A stretch of DNA of 64,000 bases, taken from contig CAVUDW010000002.1 of assembly GCA_963740355.1 (NCBI GenBank), forward strand, positions 704,001 to 768,000. Reading direction: 5' to 3'. The translations under genes and the position numbers were made by a program. The DNA comes from an uncultured Gemmatimonadaceae bacterium. GTDB taxonomy: Bacteria > Gemmatimonadota > Gemmatimonadetes > Gemmatimonadales > Gemmatimonadaceae. Below are positions 29,410-39,452 of the stretch, piece after piece. The notes under the pieces are model-generated. The model was given only the letters and a program-made list of their open reading frames with translations, was not told the origin of the DNA and ran no database searches. Each line of letters opens with the position of its first letter. Position 1 is the stretch's first letter.

Positions 29410-30066
29410 GTGAGTCGTGCGCCGCGTGTAAAAATTTGCTGCATCAGCAGCATCGAGGAGGCCGCACTCGCCATCACACATGGCGCGTCGGCGCTCGGCC
29501 TCGTCAGCCAGATGCCGAGTGGGCCGGGCGTGGTGGAGGAATCTCACATCGCCGAGATCATTGCGACGGTGCCGCCTCCAATCGCCACCTTCCTGCTCAC
29601 CAGTGCCACCGACGCCGCAGGCATCGTCGCGCAGCAGCATCGCATGCGCCCAACCACGCTGCAGCTGGTGGACCATCTCGACGCCACCGTGCATCGCGCA
29701 CTGCGGAGCGCGCTCCCCGGCATCACGCTGGTGCAGGTGGTGCATGTCGAGGACGAGGAGAGCGTGGAGTATGCGCTCGCCGCCGCCCGAACCGTCGATG
29801 CGCTGTTGCTCGACTCCGGCCGACTCAAGGCACCAGTGAAAGAACTCGGCGGCACCGGTCGCACGCACGACTGGGGGCTTTCCCGGCGCATTCGGGATCA
29901 GGCAGGGAAGCCGATCTTCCTTGCCGGCGGATTACGCGCAGAAAACGTCGCCGACGCCATTCGTGCCGTGCAGCCGTTCGGATTGGATCTGTGCACCGGA
30001 GTGCGCACCAATGGTGCCCTCGATGCCACGAAACTCTCCAACTTCATGAACGCAGTCCGCGCCTGA
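29410..30066 (+). CDS. trpF: phosphoribosylanthranilate isomerase (stand-alone)
   Basis: RVKICCI, LLLDSG...GGTGRTHDW, FLAGGLRAENV, GLDLCTGV. Confidence 0.88.
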   Translation: MSRAPRVKICCISSIEEAALAITHGASALGLVSQMPSGPGVVEESHIAEIIATVPPPIATFLLTSATDAAGIVAQQHRMRPTTLQLVDHLDATVHRALRSALPGITLVQVVHVEDEESVEYALAAARTVDALLLDSGRLKAPVKELGGTGRTHDWGLSRRIRDQAGKPIFLAGGLRAENVADAIRAVQPFGLDLCTGVRTNGALDATKLSNFMNAVRA

Positions 30067-30087
30067 ACGGCGGCGCCGGATTTCGTA

Positions 30088-30774
30088 CTACTCTGCGGTG
30101 AAGGTCCGTGTTCGTGTCTGATAGTGCCGACGTTCACCACCGAGCAGGCGCACGAAGAAACCCCGCACCGTGCGCGTCATCGCCGTCCCTGGATTGCGAT
30201 CGCCACGCAGTGCTGGCCGCACCTCGCCGCGTAGCCACCGCTCCACTTCATCGAGATCGGTGAGGCTCAGCACCTCGACATCGAGACTCGAGTCGTAGTA
30301 GTAGCTCGACCCGCGCTTCATCGACGGTGGTGCCATGATCCGGAATGGCTTCTCCACCAACGCTTCCGCCTCTTCCGGCGTGTCGAAACGTCCCAGCCGG
30401 CTGGCCCGATCACCAACGACGCGATAGACCTCGAACTTCTTGTTCAGCTGGTCGTAACGCACCAGCATGTCCCACTCCACGGCGCCATCGAGCTGGTTGT
30501 TCAGGCGTTCGTTGCGCCACAACTCGCAGCGGAAATGGAGCCGCGCCGGAAACCCGCCGCGCAACAGGTCGCGCAACTCCCGTGATGCCAGCACCGCGCG
30601 CGGCGCGAACGCAGGTCCATCACCGCCACCGATGGCGCGCGCCGGCAGGATGACGTCAAGACGAGCATCCGGCTGTGCGTACACAGGCGCAGCCGCCGCT
30701 ATCGCGGACACTCCGAACAGTGCCAGCGTCAGCAGCCTACGCACTGCGCTGCGGCGAGTCACTGGCGAGCGCAC
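30088..30774 (-). CDS. exported DUF4390-like protein
   Basis: Signal peptide (RRLLTLALFGVSAIAAAAPVYA-Q); LRDLLRGGFPARLHFRCELWR...VRYDQL pattern resembles DUF4390; GTG overlaps the upstream TAG. Confidence 0.65.
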   Translation of the reverse strand: MRSPVTRRSAVRRLLTLALFGVSAIAAAAPVYAQPDARLDVILPARAIGGGDGPAFAPRAVLASRELRDLLRGGFPARLHFRCELWRNERLNNQLDGAVEWDMLVRYDQLNKKFEVYRVVGDRASRLGRFDTPEEAEALVEKPFRIMAPPSMKRGSSYYYDSSLDVEVLSLTDLDEVERWLRGEVRPALRGDRNPGTAMTRTVRGFFVRLLGGERRHYQTRTRTFTAE

Positions 30775-32510
30775 TAGTATCGCCGCACCAATCGCACGAA
30801 GACCTGCACACCCCGCGACGGCGGCGAACCGAGCGCCTTCGCGACGTAGATGCCGCCCTGGCCCAACTCCAGGCCAGCCCCGACACTCGTCTGCAACGCA
30901 TCGAGTCCCTTCGGTGCATCGGATGGCACCGGCGCCTTGAGGGACCGCGAGTTTTGCAGCCAGCCATGCCCCGCGTCCGTGAACAGCACCCAGCCGCCAT
31001 AGCCGCTGCGGTCGGGCTGGATCATGCGTGCGCCACCGAAGAGGTCCACCAGCCAGCGGATATCGTGACGGTAGTCCACGCTCAGCAGCATCATGCGATC
31101 GCAGAGCGCCGGTGATCCGCTGAGTGGAATCGCCCCTGAACACTGCAAGCCATCCGGCGTGCTGACACGATCGCGGAAGGCGAATCCGCTGATCGCGCCG
31201 GGCCCGCTGAGCGACAACCGGCGTTGCAGTGGCAGTGGATCACCATGCAACCAGCCTCCGACAATCAGACGCGTATTGAGCTGCCCTGACGGCGACAAGC
31301 GGCTGTACCGCCGCAAGTCCAGCAGGCCACGACCATACCGCACCTTGCGACCCGCACTCGGAAGTGGTGCGGCGATTTCAGTGCCATAGGTCTCCTGCGT
31401 GCCATCTCCGACTTCGTACTCACCCTGCAGCCACCAGCCAGAACGTGGCCGCACAGGATCGGTGCGGGTGTCGTAGCTCGCGCGCAACATCACCCGTGTG
31501 AACTTCGCGCGGTCGAACTCCGGATTCTGGCGCCACGGATCGTCGTTCTTCCAGAGCGTGAACGGGTTGAGCGTGCGGCGCGGGCGCCAGAGTTCATCGC
31601 TGACCTCGAGTGAGGCATGTACCGCGCGCCCATCCCGGAATCCGATGATGCCGCTCCCACCGTGACGATCGTAGTAGTCGCGATAGTCGCTGTGCCCGAT
31701 GAACGACGCGAGGCCGACCTCCACATCGCTCAACTGCCAATCTTCCACCGGCGCCACGACGTCGAACAGCCGCCCGCCGATGCTGAAGTGCTCGCTGCGC
31801 CCCATCCGCAACTCCACGCGCGCACTGTGTCCAACGTTGTTGCCGTTCCATTCGATGCGTGAGCCGGTGCGGAAGATGCCGAAGAGATCGGCCGCCACGG
31901 TACCGAGCGGCGTCTTGTACCGCAGGCGCGGGCCAAACTCGATCGGCAACCCTTCCACCCGGTTGTAGGTCCGCGTCAGCGCCAACCGGATGCCGACGCC
32001 GGCCTTTGGTTCACCCTGGCCGATCAGCCTCCAGATTTCATCGAACGGTGCCTCGAGGTGCAGCACGCCATCGTCGATGCCGTAGCGAACCGAATCCGTC
32101 TCGACACGCAGCGAGCCGAGGCGCGCGCTGTCGGTGCCCGTCACGCGACCACCGAGGACGGCGACGTCGCCCGTCACCGTGGCGGTTGGTGCGAACTCCA
32201 CATCGCCGTTCAGCACCAGCAACGAGCCTTCGATGGTGCCGGAAATCCGCACGGGCCCACCGAGCACCGCCACCGACGTCCGGATCACCGAGTCAGCCAG
32301 TAGCGTGAACGGCGCCGTCTCGCGTCGTGTGGCCGGTGCATTGTAGAGTGCCTGTGCCTGCTCACGCTCGCGACGCGTGGTGCCGCGCGTGGCGCACGCC
32401 TTGCCGCCGACCGTGTCACCGCAGGTTGACCAGGTGGGTTGTTGCGCACGGACTGCGGTCGCTGTGCACGCCACGCACCCGAAGGCCGCCAGCGCCTGCC
32501 GAACCTTCAC
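30774..32510 (-). CDS. outer-membrane beta-barrel protein (Omp85/BamA-TamA-like) with N-terminal bactofilin-like beta-helix
   Basis: Signal peptide; beta-helix repeats VAVLGGPVRISGTIEGSLLVLNGDV..GDVAVLGG; YNRVEG; YDTRTDPVRPRSGW; FTDAG; C-terminal VFVRLVRRY. Confidence 0.75.
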   Translation of the reverse strand: MKVRQALAAFGCVACTATAVRAQQPTWSTCGDTVGGKACATRGTTRREREQAQALYNAPATRRETAPFTLLADSVIRTSVAVLGGPVRISGTIEGSLLVLNGDVEFAPTATVTGDVAVLGGRVTGTDSARLGSLRVETDSVRYGIDDGVLHLEAPFDEIWRLIGQGEPKAGVGIRLALTRTYNRVEGLPIEFGPRLRYKTPLGTVAADLFGIFRTGSRIEWNGNNVGHSARVELRMGRSEHFSIGGRLFDVVAPVEDWQLSDVEVGLASFIGHSDYRDYYDRHGGSGIIGFRDGRAVHASLEVSDELWRPRRTLNPFTLWKNDDPWRQNPEFDRAKFTRVMLRASYDTRTDPVRPRSGWWLQGEYEVGDGTQETYGTEIAAPLPSAGRKVRYGRGLLDLRRYSRLSPSGQLNTRLIVGGWLHGDPLPLQRRLSLSGPGAISGFAFRDRVSTPDGLQCSGAIPLSGSPALCDRMMLLSVDYRHDIRWLVDLFGGARMIQPDRSGYGGWVLFTDAGHGWLQNSRSLKAPVPSDAPKGLDALQTSVGAGLELGQGGIYVAKALGSPPSRGVQVFVRLVRRY

Positions 32511-33904
32511 GCGTCACCTCGTCCGTCGTGCATGCCACCACCAATGCCGAGTCGTTTCATCCGTCGATAGAGATTCGGTCGATCCGTCTGCAAGCGTCGC
32601 GCCGCTTCCGCCACGTTGCCGGTGGAATCGTCGAGGGCGCGCACGATCAACTGCCGTTCATACAAATCGAGCGCGTCGCTGAGTGGCAGCGACGGATCGA
32701 TCCGAGCTGCCGACTGCGGCGTCGACCGCTCGCTGCCGCGCGGAGCCGGCAACACATCGTGCACGTCGCCCACCCGCAGTTCGCGCCCCGGGTGCAGGAT
32801 CGCCAACCGTTCCACGATGTTGGCCAGCTCGCGCACATTGCCGGGCCAGCGGTGCGCGCGCAGCGCGGCCATCGCTTCCATCGTGAACGTCGGCGTCGCG
32901 CGACCGGTGCGCGTGCGATGCAGGGCCGTGAAATGCAACACCAGTTGATCGAGGTCCTCGATGCGGTCGCGCAGCGGAGGCAGCGTCATCGGGATCACGT
33001 TCAACCGGAAGAAGAGGTCCTCGCGGAAGGTGCCGTCGGCAACGGCTGCTTCGAGATTGCGATTGGTCGCCGACACGATGCGCACATCCACCTTGATCGG
33101 CTTGCCGCCGCCCACGCGCTCGATCTCCCGGGCCTCGATCGCACGCAGCAGCTTTGCCTGCGCTTCGCTGCCGAGGTCACCCACTTCATCGAGAAACAGC
33201 GTGCCGCCATGTGCCAGCTCGAAGCGGCCGATGCGGCGCTCGGTGGCTCCAGTGAAGGCGCCGCGTTCATGCCCGAACATCTCGCTCTCGACCAGGTCGC
33301 GCGGAATGGCGGCGCAGTTGGTGCGCACGTAGGCCTTGTCGCGGCGCGGACTACCGGTGTGCAGCGCCCCGGCCACCAGTTCCTTGCCGGTGCCGCTTTC
33401 GCCTGAGATGAGGACGCGTGCATCACTCGGAGCCACGCGCGCGATCAGCTCACGCACCTGCTGCATCGCCGGGCTATCACCCACCAACCCGCCAGCCAGC
33501 CCGAGATCTTCGCGCAGCGTGCGTGCCGCACGGCGCGTCTGTCGCAGTTCCAGCGCCGACCCGAGCGCGAGCAGCGTGCCTTCAGGCGTGAGCGGCTTTT
33601 CGAGAAAGGTGAAGGCGCCGAGTCGCGTGGCCTTGACCGCGTCGCTGAGTCCCGCGCGCCCGCTCATCATGACCACCGGCAACTCGGGGAATCGCTCGCG
33701 GAACTTCGCCAGCGTATCGAGGCCATCGGTGTCGTTCGGCATCATCAGGTCGAGCAGCACCACATCAGGTTCGGCTTCCAGCGCGCGTGCGAAGGCCGAG
33801 TGACCCTCGGGCGCATCGCGGACCTCGTACCCCTCGGCGGCGAGCAGCGCACCCACCATCCGGCGGATATTCGGCTCGTCGTCGACGATCAGGACACTCG
33901 GCAT
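32507..33904 (-). CDS. sigma-54-dependent response regulator (NtrX/NtrC family; REC-AAA-HTH)
   Basis: VLIVDDE, LLDLMMP, GESGTGKE, ESEMFGHERGAFTGA, LFLDEV, WPGNVREL, Fis-type HTH. Confidence 0.96.
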   Translation of the reverse strand: MPSVLIVDDEPNIRRMVGALLAAEGYEVRDAPEGHSAFARALEAEPDVVLLDLMMPNDTDGLDTLAKFRERFPELPVVMMSGRAGLSDAVKATRLGAFTFLEKPLTPEGTLLALGSALELRQTRRAARTLREDLGLAGGLVGDSPAMQQVRELIARVAPSDARVLISGESGTGKELVAGALHTGSPRRDKAYVRTNCAAIPRDLVESEMFGHERGAFTGATERRIGRFELAHGGTLFLDEVGDLGSEAQAKLLRAIEAREIERVGGGKPIKVDVRIVSATNRNLEAAVADGTFREDLFFRLNVIPMTLPPLRDRIEDLDQLVLHFTALHRTRTGRATPTFTMEAMAALRAHRWPGNVRELANIVERLAILHPGRELRVGDVHDVLPAPRGSERSTPQSAARIDPSLPLSDALDLYERQLIVRALDDSTGNVAEAARRLQTDRPNLYRRMKRLGIGGGMHDGRGDA

Positions 33905-33914
33905 CGGTGGTCGG

Positions 33915-34445
33915 TCAGCCCGGTGTCGAGCTGCGCTCGGCGAGCACCCTCGTCACGAATCGCTGGCCCTCACTGATCCGCTCCACTTCCACCGACATCG
34001 CTTCGACCGCAGCCTCGATCCGCTGCAATCGATCGGTCGTGTCGCGTGCCGGTGCGGCGATCTGTCGGTTGGCACTGCGGTTGACGAGCGCCTTGAGGAA
34101 CCCGAACACCGGATAGGCGGCCACCATCATGCAGAAGCCGACGATCGCCGTGGTTGCGATCGACTGCACGCCCGGTGGGATGTCGCGCGGAAAGTCTCGC
34201 GGGAATTGGGTGCCGGAACCGCCCTGAAAGACGTCACCACCACCGGTGGCGCCGTCGAGCGTGATCGTCTTGCCATCGCGCTGAATCGTGATGCGACCCG
34301 GCGCGGGGGTCTCGCCGCCCAAGACAATCGCAGGAGCCGCGGGAGCGCTTGGCGCCTGCGGTGCTGCGGTGGGCGGTTGTGCCGGCTGCTGCACGATCGT
34401 TGCGCTCCAACCCGCGCCTCGGATCACGAACACCTGATTAGCCAC
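33915..34445 (-). CDS. single-TM protein, paralog 4 of the EVERISEGQR family
   Basis: GGAGG RBS then GTG at 34445; RITIQRDGKTITLDG, TM helix, RLQRIEAAVEAMSVEVERISEGQRFVTRVL. Confidence 0.85.
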   Translation of the reverse strand: MANQVFVIRGAGWSATIVQQPAQPPTAAPQAPSAPAAPAIVLGGETPAPGRITIQRDGKTITLDGATGGGDVFQGGSGTQFPRDFPRDIPPGVQSIATTAIVGFCMMVAAYPVFGFLKALVNRSANRQIAAPARDTTDRLQRIEAAVEAMSVEVERISEGQRFVTRVLAERSSTPG

Positions 34446-35013
34446 GTGGAACCTCCAGGGGAGCACGATCGGATAGCAGGCGCGTGGTGAAGCGCTGCCC
34501 TTCACTGATGCGTTCGACTTCGATGGCGACGGACTCGATGGCCGTCTCCATCCGAGCCATGCGTTGCGTGAGTTCAGCGGGCATCTGCGCCGCACCAACG
34601 TGCCCGCGCGTCTTGCTGCGATACCACATCACGACGGCTGCCAGCACCACGATCGCGGTGGAGACGATGGCCAGCCCCGCCACGACGTACGGCCCGTCGC
34701 TTTCCTGCTGATGATCAGGGAGCGGAATGCCGAGGGCCGTCGCGACCGCTTCCGGCGAGGCACCATCGAGTGTGATCGTCTGGCCGTTCTTCGTGATCGT
34801 GACGACTGCGTCGCGGCCGCCATCGGCCTGACCGGCACGCGCAGCCTCACGGGCAGCGTTTCGCGCCTCGTTGGCCGCGTTGCGCTGGTCCCTCGCCGCT
34901 TCGCGTGCTTGGGTGGCGGCCTCGCGCGCTGCCTCTGCGCTGCTACGAGCTTGCGCGGCCTGCGCGTCGGATTGTCCTGACTGCATCAGCATCCTGAATT
35001 CTCGCATGTTCAC
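34438..35013 (-). CDS. single-TM protein, paralog 3 of the EVERISEGQR family
   Basis: Ala/Arg/Glu-rich helix, VTITKNGQTITLDG, TM helix, RMARMETAIESVAIEVERISEGQRFTTRLL. Confidence 0.88.
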   Translation of the reverse strand: MNMREFRMLMQSGQSDAQAAQARSSAEAAREAATQAREAARDQRNAANEARNAAREAARAGQADGGRDAVVTITKNGQTITLDGASPEAVATALGIPLPDHQQESDGPYVVAGLAIVSTAIVVLAAVVMWYRSKTRGHVGAAQMPAELTQRMARMETAIESVAIEVERISEGQRFTTRLLSDRAPLEVPRG

Positions 35014-35639
35014 GCCTCGCCGACACTGCGGTACACGGCATCACCGCGAGCCGGCACTGGCACCGGACCTGCCGCACCTTCGGACAGCATCTTCGAGGTG
35101 TAGCGCTGGCCCTCGCTGATGCGCTCGACTTCGACGGCGATCGACTCGACGGCGTTCTCGATCCGGGCCATCCGGGCGGCCGTTTCCTTGTCGGGTGCCG
35201 CTGCGGCGGCGGAGGGCCGACCGCGGCGCAGGTAGTTGAGCACCATCCAGGTGATGAGGACGATTGCACCGAGTGTCGCGACGGTCAGCGACACGATCAT
35301 CTTCGGATCCGGCTGTGACGGCACACCAATGCCCGCCTGCGCCAATTGCTCTGAGGTCGGATTCTCGAGCACGATGGTCTTGCCGTCGCGTTCGATCACG
35401 ATGCGACCGCCTGCCACTGCAGGCACCGGCGGAAACTGCGCGATGTCGGCGTCGCCCTGGGCTGCACCAGCCGCCTTGCCAGCTGCTGCCGCCTGTTCCA
35501 TGCCGGCCAGCGCAGCCTTCTTCGCCGCCAGCTCGAGCTGCGCATCGATCCGCGCCATTTCGGCGTTGGTGGCGGCGGGGGTGGCGGGCGCCTGCGTGGA
35601 CGGTGCCTGTGCGGATCGAACCTGTGTTGGACTACGCAT
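35010..35639 (-). CDS. single-TM protein, paralog 2 of the EVERISEGQR family
   Basis: RIVIERDGKTIVLEN, TM helix, RMARIENAVESIAVEVERISEGQRYTSKML. Confidence 0.88.
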   Translation of the reverse strand: MRSPTQVRSAQAPSTQAPATPAATNAEMARIDAQLELAAKKAALAGMEQAAAAGKAAGAAQGDADIAQFPPVPAVAGGRIVIERDGKTIVLENPTSEQLAQAGIGVPSQPDPKMIVSLTVATLGAIVLITWMVLNYLRRGRPSAAAAAPDKETAARMARIENAVESIAVEVERISEGQRYTSKMLSEGAAGPVPVPARGDAVYRSVGEA

Positions 35640-35951
35640 GTGTCACCTCATTGGACGGGGCCCGGACTGGCGCGGCTTCGCGGGCCTTCTGCACCATCGG
35701 TTGCGCTGCTCCTTCTGACAGCAGACGCGTTGTGAATCGCTGGCCTTCCGACAAGCGCTCGACTTCAACGGCAACGGTTTCGACGATCGATTCGAGTCGA
35801 TCGAGGCGCATCGCCAGTTCCGGCGAGAGCGGCGTGCTGACCGAGATTCGCTCCGATTCGCCTCGTATAAGCGCGCACCAGCGGAATGCCGAGCGGCGAG
35901 AATGATCACCGTGGCAAGAAGCAGTGCCGGGATGACGATGTCTTCATTCAT
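35632..35951 (-). CDS. single-TM protein, paralog 1 of the EVERISEGQR family; two +1 frameshifts (about 35895 and 35853)
   Basis: Reconstructed as MNEDIVIPALLLATVIILALGIPLVRAYTRRIERISVSTPLSPELAMRLDRLESIVETVAVEVERLSEGQRFTTRLLSEG...EVTHA*, 105 aa. Confidence 0.8.
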
Positions 35952-37174
35952 GCTGACTGATCCGGAAGGTGCGACGCGGCTGTCGTTGGCAACGTGAGCG
36001 TAATGGTTGTACCAAGTCCTGCCGCACTGTCCGCGGCGACCGTGCCGCCATGTGCGAGCACCGTCTGGCGCACGATGGCGAGGCCGAGCCCCGTGCCCCC
36101 CGGCTTGGTCGTCACGTACGGCTCCCAGATTCGGCAGAGCGTTTCGGCCGGGATGCCGGGGCCGGTGTCATGCACGCGGATTTCAACCGCCGAAACCGGT
36201 GATGCGATCGCACGGGCCGCGACGGTGATGGTGCCAGCCGGACCGGCGGCATCCGCCGCATTCAACAGGATGTTGCTCACGGCCCGTGCCAGCGGATCGT
36301 GGTGCCCCGACACGAAGGGCAACGACTCCGGCACTTCGAGGGAGACCGTCGTCGTTGGCGACAGCGTGGAGCGGGTGGCGTACCGCAGCAACTCAGCGAT
36401 GTCGACATCGGCCACCGGGCCATCGGGCAGGCGGCCGAACTGTGCAAAACTCTTGGCCAGCGTGTCCAGCCGCTGGGTCTCGATTTCGAGGACGTCGATC
36501 GTGTCCTGCAGCTCCGGCGCAGCGGATTTCCGCAGTCGGGAGACGGCGAATCGGATCGGCGTGAGCGGGTTCTTCAGCTCATGCGCCACGCGGCGCGCGG
36601 TCTCGCGGAATGCGCCCAGCCGGGCCGCCTCGGTCGCGGCCGTCCGTCCCGCATCGAGTTGCATGGCCATGGTTCGCATCCGGGATCGCAGTACCTCGAA
36701 CTCGGGAGCGCCGCGACTCGGCGGCCCCGATGGAAGCACATCCGCTCGCGCGATGCGCTCCGTCCACTCTACCACCTCATCCAGCGGCCGACTGAGCTGC
36801 CGACTGAGGTGCCCTGCCACTCGCCCGGCGACGACCGCCAGGATGGCGAACAACACCAGCACCACCACCAGCACCGGACGGATCACGCGCGGTGCCAGGT
36901 ACTCCAACCGCTTCGCCTGATCCAACGACGCCTGCAACTCCGCCTCGTGCGCATCCAGCGCTGCCTTGACCTCGCCTTTCGGCGCGGACCGTCGGGCCGC
37001 CGCAAGCGCACGGCTCCCCGTCTCAGCGACCCGGCTCCACGCGCCACCGGAAGCCATGAATGGCAGGGCTCGGTTCGCGGCCACCAGTCCCACCGTCGTC
37101 AGCAGGGCAGCTGGCAGGACGGCGAACGCGATGAGCACGAGCAGCAAGCGGGTGCGGAACCCGAGACGGGACAC
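35948..37174 (-). CDS. membrane sensor histidine kinase (NtrY-like; HAMP-HisKA-HATPase)
   Basis: Two TM helices, ARRVAHELKNPLTPI H-box, NILLNA, DTGPGI, EPYVTTKPGGTGLGL. Confidence 0.95.
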   Translation of the reverse strand: MSRLGFRTRLLLVLIAFAVLPAALLTTVGLVAANRALPFMASGGAWSRVAETGSRALAAARRSAPKGEVKAALDAHEAELQASLDQAKRLEYLAPRVIRPVLVVVLVLFAILAVVAGRVAGHLSRQLSRPLDEVVEWTERIARADVLPSGPPSRGAPEFEVLRSRMRTMAMQLDAGRTAATEAARLGAFRETARRVAHELKNPLTPIRFAVSRLRKSAAPELQDTIDVLEIETQRLDTLAKSFAQFGRLPDGPVADVDIAELLRYATRSTLSPTTTVSLEVPESLPFVSGHHDPLARAVSNILLNAADAAGPAGTITVAARAIASPVSAVEIRVHDTGPGIPAETLCRIWEPYVTTKPGGTGLGLAIVRQTVLAHGGTVAADSAAGLGTTITLTLPTTAASHLPDQSA

Positions 37175-37426
37175 TGAGGCGACTACGAGCTGAGGGAGGG
37201 GGATGTTTCGGTCATTCTACCCACGGACACACCGGTCGGTCGGGCCCAGCGGTGCCGTTGCGGCGCAACGTCGTTAGTTTATCTGGTGCACTTCCGCTGT
37301 CGCGGCCTCCGGCCGGCCTTGCCCTTAGCATCTGGGGCGGGGCGCCGGGGAGAGCGACCGCGCAGCCGCCGGCACTTTCGCCGCTGCGGCGCGTGCCATG
37401 ATCGCTTCTTCACATCCCCAGTTTAC

Positions 37427-39359
37427 ATGAACGGACGCACGCCGCGTCCGCACGCACCCCGAGGGCCCATCGCCCCGGTGCATCGCGGACCGCAGGCCAG
37501 CAGCATGAGTGCTGCGGCCTCCCCCAGCTACTCGCAGTACAGCCAGGCGCCCAACGCCGCCCTGCTCATCGACTTCGACAACGTCACGATGGGCATTCGC
37601 TCCGACCTGCAGACGGAGCTCAAGAACCTCCTCTCGTCGGACATCATCAAGGGCAAGGTCGCCGTCCAGCGCGCCTACGCCGACTGGCGCCGCTACCCGC
37701 AGTATGTCGTCCCGCTGGCCGAGTCGTCGATCGACATGATCATGGCGCCGGCGTACGGCAGCTCGAAGAAGAACGCCACCGACATCCGCCTCGCGATCGA
37801 CGCCGTCGAACTGATGTTCACGCGCCCCGAGATCGGCACCTTCATCCTGCTCAGCGGCGATTCCGACTTCTCGAGCATGGTGATGAAGCTCAAGGAGTAC
37901 GGCAAGTACGTGATCGGCGTCGGCATTCGCGAAAGCTCCAGCGACCTGCTGGTGATGAATTGCGACGAATACTACAGCTACAACGCACTCGCCGGCCTCG
38001 TGAAGACGAGCGACGAGGAGACCGTGAAGCGCGATCCGTGGGAGCTGGTCACGGAGTCGCTCGCCCGCATGGTGCGCAATGGCGACGTGATGCGCGCCGA
38101 TCGCCTGAAGCAGGTGATGCAGGACATCGACAATGGCTTCGACGAGAAGGATCTCGGCATGTCGAAGTTCTCGAAGTTCGTGCAGGAGGCGGCGCAGAAA
38201 GGCCTGCTGACACTGACGCGACTCGAGAACGGCCAGTTCGAGATTGCACCACCGGGTGTGAAGGCAACGGGTGCGGCACCGGCCGTGGCCAGTGCCGATG
38301 TCGCCGGTGCACTCGACGAAGCCGCCGAGAAGGAAGAGGGCGAGGAGAAGAGCAGCCGTCGCCGTCGTGGGCGTGGTCGTGGACGCGGTGGCCGTGATCG
38401 CGAGCCGCGCGAACCGCGCGTGCTGACTGATGTCGTGGCCACGGCCGTCGCTGCCAGCGAGCCGGCATCGACCACGAGTCGCCGACGTCGAGGAAGAAGC
38501 GGAAGCCGAGGCCGACGTTGTTGTTGCGGCTCCGGTGGCGCCGACGCCGCGCGTCGACGCGCCGCGGCCGACGCACACACCGCGTGCCGAGACGCCGCGT
38601 GCCGCACAGGGACGCGACTCGATCGGGCTCGGTGGTGAACGCCTCACGCGCAACGAAGCCTTCGATCTCGTGCGCAAGGCCGTCCACGCCACGGTCAAGA
38701 ACGACATCCCAGCGGGCATGCTCGCGGTGCGTGAAAGTGCCGCAGCGTTGCTCGGCCGCGACAGCGAAAGCCTCAGCGAACGCAACTTCACTCGAATCCT
38801 GCAGGACGCGCACGATGCCGATGTGATCGACCTGCGCAAGCGTGGCGATTCGTGGGAAGTGGCGCCGGTGCAGCAGGTTGGCGAAGTGTCGGAGCAGCTG
38901 GCGAAGCACGAAGCGGCGAATGCACCGAAGCCGGTGGCTGGACCGCCGGCACCGCGCGGCATGGGCTCACGTGGTGGCATGCGCGGTGGTCGCCCGTCCG
39001 CACCGCCGCCGGGGCTGTTGATGGTGGGTGTGGTGGATGAGTCGCCGAGCGTCGTTTCGACGCCCGTACCATCTGCCGCTGCGCCGGTCGCCGCCGTGGC
39101 GCCCGCCGCCAAGCCAGCGCCACGCGCGCCGGAATTGGCACTGACACCGGCAACACCAGCGAAGTCGCCGGCGAAGCCGAATGGCCGTCGTCCCGCCGCG
39201 AAGAAGGCTGCACCGGCAAAGCCCGCCGTGAAGGCCGCAGCGCCAGCCAAGGCGCCGGTTGCCAAGGCACCAGTGGCCAAGGCGCCAGCCAAGAAGACGG
39301 CGCCCGCCGCGAAGAAGGCAGCAGCCAAGGCACCGGCAAAGAAGGCCGCCAAGCGGTAG
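37427..39359 (+). CDS. NYN (LabA/DUF88) RNase-fold protein with LOTUS/OST-HTH-like domains and Lys/Ala/Pro-rich tail; +1 frameshift at about 38460-38480
   Basis: LLIDFDNV, RAYADW, KNATDIRLAIDA, LSGDSDF, CDEY; LKQVMQDIDNGFDEKDLGMSKFSKFV (LOTUS-like); the second frame continues to a PAKK-repeat tail. Confidence 0.85.
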
Positions 39360-39452
39360 TCGTTTCGCTGGTCGCAGCTGTTCGACCGCCACGCCCGCAT
39401 CACCGAACTCGGTGATGCGGGCGTGGTCGTTTCAGCCCATCATCTTTCCGTC

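Follow-up and report, generated by a model that had tools for sequence, protein, structure and literature searches.

A family of small membrane proteins inserted into a sigma-54 two-component operon of Gemmatimonadaceae

In a 64,000-nt stretch of DNA from an uncultured Gemmatimonadaceae bacterium (GenBank assembly GCA_963740355.1, contig CAVUDW010000002.1, positions 704,001 to 768,000; hereafter "the window"), four related genes for small membrane proteins, P1 to P4, lie between the gene of a sensor histidine kinase (HK) and that of a sigma-54 response regulator (RR), with genes for an outer-membrane protein (OMP) and a DUF4390-like protein downstream. What are the P proteins, how did they come to lie in a signaling operon, and what may they do there? 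An earlier note, made from the sequence alone, had described them as PspB-like paralogs within an NtrY/NtrX-like operon. Our best reading of the locus is an envelope-spanning sigma-54 two-component operon, whose four-gene core is common in Gemmatimonadota. The P genes are an insertion into this older operon, seen only in the window's family, and we hold with about even confidence that their products are accessory membrane subunits recruited into envelope signaling.

A conserved operon with P genes between kinase and regulator

The locus consists of eight genes on the minus strand (30088-37174) in the order HK, P1, P2, P3, P4, RR, OMP, and DUF4390-like (Table 1). Overlaps occur at six of the seven junctions: the start ATG of P1 overlaps the kinase stop (ATGA), P1/P2 and P3/P4 each overlap by 8 nt, P2/P3 and RR/OMP both share GTGA, and OMP/DUF4390 share TAGTG. 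The sole gap, between P4 and RR, is 10 nt. Both flanks are on the opposite strand, with an NYN-domain gene diverging at 37286 and a convergent open reading frame (ORF) ending at 30066. Given the tight junctions and the opposite-strand flanks, the eight genes look like one operon. A scan of 29800-37500 found no sigma-70-like promoter and no convincing terminator. Coordinates and junctions agree with the earlier note, which had listed eight tightly coupled minus-strand genes in this order, and the four 30-residue motif blocks that it quoted are exact against the translation.

We assessed the conservation of this arrangement in two samples. The first comprised the 80 best loci for a P1-type query among species-representative genomes, taken without regard to tandem copies. 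At 78 of these loci, P is flanked by a kinase-like and a regulator-like match, and at the other two P is alone; OMP and DUF4390 are also found downstream at 60 of the 78, while the remaining 18 are short or truncated loci. The second comprised 20 places, picked for tandem or top P matches, in a sample of 201 Gemmatimonadota genomes (the phylum sample). Here, 17 of 20 have, in this order, the kinase, two to four P, the regulator, OMP, and DUF4390; one contig stops within the OMP gene. Overall, DUF4390 is in the same operon at 60/80 and 16/20 loci of the window's family. The conserved link of P to the HK-RR pair that the earlier note had proposed to check is therefore present (78/80 and 17/20 loci). 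The opposite outcome, homologs scattered without such a link, is not what these loci show, yet family members also occur at unrelated loci, as described below.

The number of P genes varies. Strict motif counts in 90 kinase-to-regulator brackets, which give lower bounds, yielded no copy in one bracket, one copy in 46, two in 25, three in 13, and four in five. The usual operon form has a single short P in a kinase-regulator spacer of ~320-390 nt, and the window, with a 2044-nt spacer and four P copies, is at the upper end of the range.

To place the operon in the phylum, we compared P and DUF4390-like profile matches, which are not exact copy numbers, across families labeled f1 (the window's family) to f8. 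The P profile matches 77 of the 201 genomes: 34/38 in f1, with 1-11 matches each, 11/96 in f2, 9/11 in f6, and 18/23 in f7. Outside f1, these are mostly weak single matches. The DUF4390-like profile, in single copy, matches 120 of 201 genomes: 35/38 in f1, 74/96 in f2, 0/11 in f6, and 1/23 in f7, as well as 3/3 in f3, 3/4 in f4, 1/1 in f5, and 2/3 in f8. (The tallies include a few unpublished genomes, namely G157, G182, G057, G222, and G223, and no statement rests on those.) At 14 loci of f2, f3, f5, f7, and f8, the kinase and regulator genes are separated by 21-81 nt (10 loci), about 200 nt (two loci), 1078 nt (L154), or 3.7 kb (L162), and kinase, regulator, and OMP are consecutive without any P match. 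The DUF4390 gene follows OMP at 13 of these 14, i.e., those where tblastn detects DUF4390. The P-bearing loci, by comparison, are titled Gemmatimonadaceae, Gemmatimonadales, or Gemmatimonas and have one to four P between kinase and regulator. Since the core occurs without P in other Gemmatimonadota families, the P genes are an insertion into an older four-gene operon, and this insertion is seen only in the window's family.

Three loci of the other families have peculiarities of their own. The 3.7-kb insert between kinase and regulator in f5 genome G049 (L162:5346-9204) encodes two proteins, one of 556 aa that has an HExxH motif and one of 742 aa that is OMP-like, a different accessory pair at this junction. 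The 1-kb spacer in f8 genome G106 (L154:7862-8940) is filled with a repeat reading 'RALRGGCWSPRVARWMLESARCAVDVGV' in several frames. In f2 genome G138 (L155:8962-10348), the regulator ortholog appears as two overlapping tblastn pieces in different frames, possibly through a frame shift in the assembly.

The P family

None of P1-P4 matches a Pfam or NCBIfam family, and the earlier note's remark that it recognized no described family for the motif holds in this sense: no Pfam or NCBIfam model covers the P proteins. The family is large. A search with P3 found 520 relatives at E<=1e-3 among 8000 scored candidates; among the 120 of these that were listed, no Pfam domain is present, and names are either missing, "hypothetical," or plainly spurious. 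Searching 1.84 billion proteins with an 11-member profile yielded 4328 matching cluster representatives at E<=1e-3 and 2205 at E<=1e-10. Of the 150 best matches, the majority are 84-114 aa long and consist of a short N-terminus, a transmembrane (TM) helix, a basic flank, and a helix with the motif, and about one third are 120-250 aa long with an N-terminal extension. Among the best 80 of 538 confirmed loci from species-representative genomes, we saw no P family member outside Gemmatimonadota: all are titled Gemmatimonadota, Gemmatimonadales, Gemmatimonadaceae, or Gemmatimonas, except one titled "bacterium." In the Protein Atlas, homolog P0006 retrieves only unnamed Gemmatimonadota clusters, and its structure rows have TM values (structural similarity) below 0.35. 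Literature searches, with supplements outside their scope, found no description of the P family or of this Gemmatimonadota operon.

In the window, P2, P3, and P4 share one plan: an Ala/Gln/Arg-rich N-terminal region, a short conserved stretch, one TM helix, a basic flank, and a C-terminal motif helix. P2 has an Ala-rich N-terminus, the conserved stretch 'IVIERDGKTIVL', the TM helix, a basic flank, and a cytoplasmic helix finishing ...VEVERISEGQRY... In P3, the short conserved stretch before the TM helix reads 'VVTITKNGQTITL', and the C-terminus is EVPRG, which is kept among P3 orthologs. P4 follows the plan of P2 and P3 with a distinct TM helix, nearly identical to that of its ortholog P0241. 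The extra N-terminal part of P2-P4 is ~100 aa, and the long P forms have the conserved periplasmic stretches 'ITITKDGKTITL' and 'SPEAVATALG'.

In the short forms, the TM helix starts at median residue 5. Lys and Arg (K+R) are more frequent after the TM helix than before it in 96/96 short-form relatives and 112/113 P3 orthologs. By the positive-inside rule, P is thus predicted to be oriented N-out/C-in, with the motif in the cytoplasm. The single TM helix, the basic residues after it, and the shared helix, all described in the earlier note, are confirmed by the ORFs, alignments, and K+R counts. In the 96-member consensus, RLERIEQAVDAIAVEVERISEGQRFTTKLL, hydrophobic columns follow a/d heptad spacing over approximately three heptads and are followed by conserved SEGQRF; the cytoplasmic helix ends in an almost invariant EVERISEGQRF. 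Among 113 P3 orthologs, mean column identity is 0.90 in the helix and motif, compared to 0.57-0.65 in the N-terminal, hairpin, TM, and linker regions and 0.77 in the 9-residue C-terminal tail. An almost invariant 11-residue cytoplasmic motif points to one strongly constrained partner. Separate orthologs exist for P1 (P0242), P3 (a group of 113 ending in EVPRG), and P4 (P0241), which shows that they are old paralogs, not recent duplicates.

The motif is rare in the genome itself. Over all six frames, the 5.45-Mb genome has six occurrences of the pattern E.ER..E.QR[FYWL]; four of them are within this 2-kb stretch and are therefore not due to chance. The other two are at C2:2116854 and C3:1983899, in proteins of 239 and 101 aa, respectively. 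The former, a fifth paralog (G000:C2:2116854-2117566; L001:149-865, minus strand), has a long coiled-coil-like N-terminal part and orthologs P0260 and P0280, and its gene is adjacent to, and oriented away from, clustered genes of prepilin-type (pseudopilin-like) and PilM/GspL-like proteins. The latter, a sixth paralog of the short form (G000:C3:1983899-1984201; L002:94-396, minus strand), is near ferrochelatase-like and glutamyl-tRNA-reductase-like ORFs, which were assigned by eye.

A kinship with flagellin was considered and rejected. With the 96-member profile, the helix and motif align to the N-terminal D1 region of PDB chain 8jmv_A ('EmdqLAsEVtRIStdteFntkkLL', E 4.4e-4). The PDB profile search gave no second flagellin chain at E<=10, Pfam Flagellin_N was not among the matches, and the NCBIfam flagellin-domain model matches 3/96 P members. 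Since no other flagellin chain matched, the match is probably a coincidence.

P1 is spread over three frames

In the assembly, the P1 sequence is spread over three frames. The intact 105-aa P1 ortholog P0242 aligns to frame 1 (residues 1-19), frame 2 (residues 20-31), and frame 3 (residues 31-105), with two +1 shifts, one near 35894 and one near 35855-35860. Genome G207, from the same genus, encodes an intact 103-aa P1 followed by P2 and P3 (L193). This intact P1 and the three-frame alignment to P0242 bear out the earlier note's reading of a P1 masked by two frameshifts. A metagenome contig of a relative is without one base at 35855, which is weak evidence (one contig, depth 4). Among public sequencing runs, none was found with the exact stretch; the best share was 0.16. 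The two shifts are 40 nt apart and the amino acids are still readable in every frame, so the damage is very recent if it is real; P1 may be a young pseudogene, or its shifts may stem from the assembly.

The core: kinase, regulator, outer-membrane protein, and DUF4390 protein

The kinase has HATPase_c (1.6e-25) and HisKA (5.4e-10) domains and a HAMP match below the cut-off (0.0035). By eye, two TM helices surround a periplasmic loop of ~65 residues. Pfam found no PAS or PDC domain, and among NCBIfam models only the catalytic half matches AtoS/ZraS-type models, far below the cut-offs. The 88 kinase orthologs that we aligned are 48-58% identical.

The regulator matches Response_reg, Sigma54_activat (235 bits), an AAA lid, and a Fis-type HTH_8 in Pfam. 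Its NCBIfam matches are all under the equivalog cut-off: NtrC with 437.5 of 558.6 bits, AtoC with 418 of 714, and NtrX with 410.2 of 600. By sequence, it is an NtrC-family enhancer-binding activator without a named subtype. The earlier note's sigma-54 regulator with intact GAFTGA is seen in both the Pfam matches and the translation, and the sigma-54 contact loop in 104 regulator orthologs is GAFTGA (69) or GSFTGA (35). The label "NtrY/NtrX-like" is only partly accurate: the locus does have an HK paired with an NtrC-family regulator, but the kinase lacks PAS and PDC domains and the regulator falls under the NtrX and NtrC cut-offs.

The genome encodes rpoN (Sigma54_DBD, 212 bits). A sigma-54 promoter search of the window gave 32 matches, compared to 30.5 expected, and the sigma-54 consensus was found upstream of the kinase at 0/103 loci and in the regulator-OMP spacer at 0/97 loci. 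Genome-wide, there are 296 near-consensus sigma-54 sites, which at 65% G+C is too noisy to name a regulon.

The OMP has a signal-peptide-like start, a right-handed beta-helix at approximately residues 60-152, and then an Omp85-type beta-barrel in the AlphaFold2 model (mean pLDDT 77.9; above 90 in the helix region). Pfam gives Omp85 at 23.6 bits (cut-off 24) and Bactofilin at 0.019, while Foldseek matches the model to BamA, TamA, Sam50, and Toc75 (E 3e-11 to 2e-9, probability 1.00). The beta-helix/beta-barrel OMP of the earlier note is thus borne out by the model and its Omp85 matches. The barrel fold is like that of the Omp85 superfamily; unlike those proteins, the operon's OMP has no POTRA match in Pfam and instead has a bactofilin-like beta-helix as its periplasmic part, and its gene is inside a signaling operon.

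The DUF4390-like protein has an N-terminal hydrophobic, signal-like segment and is predicted to be periplasmic. It scores 15.4 bits against PF14334, for which the cut-off is 27, and PF14334 matches 13 of 16 orthologs of this last gene at E<=1 (best E 1.9e-9). Membership appears to hold for the ortholog group, with the window's copy, which had been called DUF4390-like, as a divergent member. Its predicted structure (pLDDT 77.4) is a beta-sandwich, for which VIA-align found only generic Ig/FN3-like matches (Z 7-8.3) and Foldseek found nothing at E<=1e-3.

A DUF4390 protein has recently been connected to two-component signaling: PlrP is genetically a third component of Bordetella PlrSR, an NtrYX-family system, and is thought to act through the PDC (and PAS) domains of the kinase (PMC13001219). 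That paper lists beta-, gamma-, and zeta-proteobacteria and Magnetococcia as carriers of DUF4390, and not Gemmatimonadota. Our operon resembles PlrP-PlrS-PlrR in that the gene of a signal-bearing DUF4390 protein accompanies those of a HAMP kinase and a regulator of the NtrC family. It differs in that the DUF4390 gene is last here and 5' of the kinase in Bordetella, the kinase lacks PDC and PAS, the regulator keeps GAFTGA, and an Omp85-fold OMP and P are added. With a ~65-residue loop and no PDC or PAS in the kinase, a DUF4390 contact, if there is any, must differ from that of PlrP. The PlrP precedent supports the idea of extra non-kinase components in such systems.

Table 1. Genes of the operon in the window
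Feature	Coordinates	Strand	Product and notes	Basis
Sensor histidine kinase (HK)	35948-37174	-	408 aa	ORF, Pfam
P1 remnant	35632-35951	-	short P form, ~105 aa if intact; readable over three frames	
P2	35010-35639	-	209 aa	ORF, alignments
P3	34438-35013	-	191 aa, or 189 aa counted from ATG at 35007	ORF
P4	33915-34445	-	176 aa; GTG start at 34445 preceded by GGAGG	start-codon survey
Sigma-54 response regulator (RR)	32507-33904	-	465 aa	Pfam
Outer-membrane protein (OMP)	30774-32510	-	578 aa	Pfam, AlphaFold2, Foldseek
DUF4390-like protein	30088-30774	-	228 aa from GTG at 30774	

Next to the operon, the diverging NYN-domain gene (37286-38638, plus strand; E 4.8e-25) encodes a protein with a long Arg/Gly/Ala-rich tail. 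A 692-aa ORF opposite this gene (37325-39403, minus strand) is most likely a high-G+C artefact.

Relatives of P beside PspA and murJ

P relatives also occur at loci without the kinase. In f6, a P gene is on the same strand as, and just upstream of, the genome's only PspA/IM30 gene in all six genomes examined (G086, L064:6379-7899; G058; G075; G100; G166; G196), and the PspA start lies 394-530 nt beyond the P gene or match. The one such locus at which the intervening gene was read, L064, has a CesT_Tir_1/YbjN-type gene (E 2.5e-24) filling the gap, with its start overlapping the P stop and its stop 8 nt before pspA. In f7, a lone short P gene is part of the run lpxB, lpxK, bshC, P, murJ, uvrC in 3/3 genomes (L061 in G141, L063 in G079, and L066 in G192). 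Two f2 P loci have no common context.

The CesT/Tir-PspA dyad is a described conserved neighborhood of the YjfI/YjfJ type, and PspB is rare outside Proteobacteria (PMC11237479). The main text of that paper mentions no such TM partner and contains "gemmatimonad" 0 times; a TM partner of the dyad seems to be undescribed. The window's genome has a CesT-like/PspA dyad as well (C3:1188802, L187), without P, and among 30 PspA loci of the window's family, none has a P gene within 1.5 kb on either side, in a scan where the f6 control scored 2.8e-22. The dyad is thus present in both the window's genome and f6, and the difference is the P-family gene ahead of it in f6.

Are the P proteins PspB?

In Enterobacteria, the phage-shock system PspB/PspC-PspA-PspF uses PspBC and PspA to control the sigma-54 activator PspF. 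The likeness to our locus is twofold: the gene of a sigma-54 activator is accompanied by that of a small bitopic N-out protein that has a cytoplasmic helix, and distant P relatives are upstream of CesT-like/PspA genes in 6/6 f6 genomes. There are also differences. Neither pspA nor pspC is among the operon's eight genes (no search was aimed at pspC), and the operon's activator, unlike PspF, comes with a receiver domain and a dedicated kinase. The short P forms have the build of PspB (~75-aa N-out bitopic protein with a cytoplasmic helix), while the N-terminal part of P2-P4 is not in PspB.

At the sequence level, PF06667 is absent from the 25 Pfam families most matched by 96 short-form members at E<=1, and TIGR02976 matches two of the 96 (best E 0.013). 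P3 scores 14.1 bits against TIGR02976 (E 0.044), far from the cut-off of 51.7 bits. In a six-frame scan of the genome with this model, P3 is the best match (E 0.126) and P2 the fifth, with none above the cut-off. Alignment of P to PspB by hhalign gave 53.6% over the TM helix only with an 11-row P alignment (A3) and 7.9% with a 96-row alignment (A4), in both cases against a narrow PspB alignment, as the PspB set consists of enterobacterial sequences only, 72-100% identical to the E. coli protein; a reversed PspB alignment gave 6.4% (A3) and 1.4% (A4). P-family hidden Markov models (HMMs) score a median of 11-12 bits on real PspB, compared to 3-4 on segment-preserving shuffles (maximum 10.6) and 0 on reversed sequences; since the 114 PspB sequences are near-identical, the shuffle control amounts to one observation. 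The 'RLxRLE' of P aligns weakly but consistently to PspB 'ERIQALES', and the invariant EVERISEGQRF has no counterpart in PspB. Altogether, "PspB-like" is apt for the architecture of the short forms, and the f6 PspA neighborhood agrees with it; by sequence, membership in PspB is not supported, as no cut-off is approached and hhalign falls to 7.9% with the broad alignment.

A possible role for the P proteins

Small bitopic modulators of sensor kinases, such as MzrA, SafA, and MgrB, and YycH/YycI of WalK, are single-pass proteins that adjust kinase or phosphatase activity, and their genes often lie with or close to that of the kinase. The P sequences are unrelated to these and differ from them in having up to four paralogs and an invariant motif that is kept also at loci without a kinase. 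We propose a comparable role. The core would consist of an inner-membrane kinase, an NtrC-type activator, an Omp85-fold OMP whose beta-helix lies in the periplasm, and a PlrP-like DUF4390 protein, also periplasmic. P would act as co-sensors or modulators, made in step with the kinase through translational coupling. Physical contact, direction of effect, and signal are what we infer here: P would stand beside the kinase in the membrane, its invariant helix would dock a cytoplasmic partner common to all paralogs, and docking would tip the balance between kinase and phosphatase activity, which in turn would change how far the sigma-54 activator is phosphorylated. Further inputs would come from the N-terminal extensions of P2-P4 in the periplasm.

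Several observations weigh against this proposal. The core is complete without P at all 14 loci of the other families, and f2 has the DUF4390 profile in most of its genomes (74/96) and P in only 11/96. P1, the most constant copy elsewhere, is broken in this assembly, and the other seven genes show no visible effect. The kinase-regulator junction also holds the unrelated inserts of L162 and L154, so position alone is weaker evidence. Furthermore, the motif is present in paralogs at unrelated loci of the window's own genome and in single-copy relatives beside CesT-like/PspA or murJ genes, in families that are mostly without the operon. The motif is therefore older than the link to the kinase, and its partner is unlikely to be the kinase itself. 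More probably, the partner is a component that occurs throughout the phylum. The only candidate with genomic support is PspA or its CesT-like partner, and we consider it rather unlikely that binding to either is the main mechanism.

This candidate leads to a different account, in which the P proteins are membrane receptors or adaptors for PspA/IM30, i.e., functional analogues of PspB/PspC, that were wired into a sigma-54 operon in the window's family. Their cytoplasmic helix would bind PspA or the CesT-like partner, and the activator would respond to membrane stress in a way similar to the control of PspF by PspBC-PspA. The position of P upstream of the single PspA gene in 6/6 f6 genomes, with the CesT-like gene between them in L064, argues for this, as do the occurrence of the same, already described dyad (PMC11237479) in the window's genome, P3 being the best genome match of TIGR02976, the HMM scores on PspB above those of shuffles, and a partner regulator that is a sigma-54 activator like PspF. 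We nonetheless find it rather unlikely, because P is at 0/30 PspA loci of the window's family, the f7 relatives stand alone between bshC and murJ (3/3), the operon has no pspA gene, and the PspB scores come from 114 near-identical sequences, i.e., one observation. That P are true, very divergent PspB homologs is highly improbable. The common plan of the short forms (90-105 aa), the weak but consistent 'RLxRLE'/'ERIQALES' alignment, the scores above shuffles, and the f6 PspA neighborhood are what such homology would predict. Against these stand the absence of PF06667 from the 25 most-matched families, TIGR02976 matches in only 2/96 members with P3 far under 51.7 bits, an hhalign match confined to the TM helix (53.6%) that drops to 7.9% with 96 rows, a PspB profile that is itself narrow (72-100% identical to the E. 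coli protein), and a motif, EVERISEGQRF, that is not in PspB.

Other explanations give P no part in signal transfer. In one, P would be structural linkers or assembly factors: P2-P4 would extend their periplasmic N-termini to the DUF4390 protein or to the OMP beta-helix, the cytoplasmic helices of the P proteins would form a hetero-oligomeric bundle, and an envelope-spanning complex would be kept in place in this way without a signal being carried. Long forms with conserved periplasmic stretches, periplasmic and outer-membrane partners encoded in the same operon, and a heptad pattern that fits a coiled coil are all consistent with this. It is quite unlikely, however, given that the commonest form is a single short P with almost no periplasmic part (46/90 brackets with one copy) and that OMP and DUF4390 occur without P in other families. 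We consider it very unlikely that P are general small membrane proteins that landed in a permissive kinase-regulator spacer and are carried along with no role in the pathway. The unrelated inserts at the same junction in L162 and L154 and the family copies at unrelated loci would fit such passengers, but the arrangement is kept in 78/80 loci across many genera, the stop/start overlaps with the kinase are kept, and distinct ortholog groups are maintained (P0242, the 113-member P3 group, and P0241).

Implications for envelope signaling in Gemmatimonadota

The system is of a known kind, in which non-kinase components are added to a two-component system around small bitopic modulators. The P family, its copy-number expansion, the insertion history, the combination with Omp85-like and PlrP-like proteins, and the PspA neighborhood of distant members have not been described. 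A broader possibility, which we consider unlikely, is that the P family is a new class of membrane receptor for the PspA/IM30 (ESCRT-III-like) repair system that was built into a sigma-54 two-component operon, so that one activator would integrate inner-membrane stress (P, PspA) with outer-membrane and periplasmic status (Omp85-like protein, PlrP-like protein, kinase). If true, this would combine the Psp response with a three-component kinase system in a hybrid that has not been described so far.

Our analysis defines a large family of small proteins for which there is no Pfam or NCBIfam model, and it shows an old four-gene envelope signaling operon that acquired putative membrane subunits in a single bacterial family. 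A third component of the PlrP type, which was published in 2026 from beta- and gamma-proteobacteria, is found here in another phylum and with a differently built kinase, which offers a test of the generality of its mechanism. The CesT-like/PspA neighborhood provides a concrete hypothesis for the partner of the motif, and cultured Gemmatimonas species make these predictions testable at the bench.

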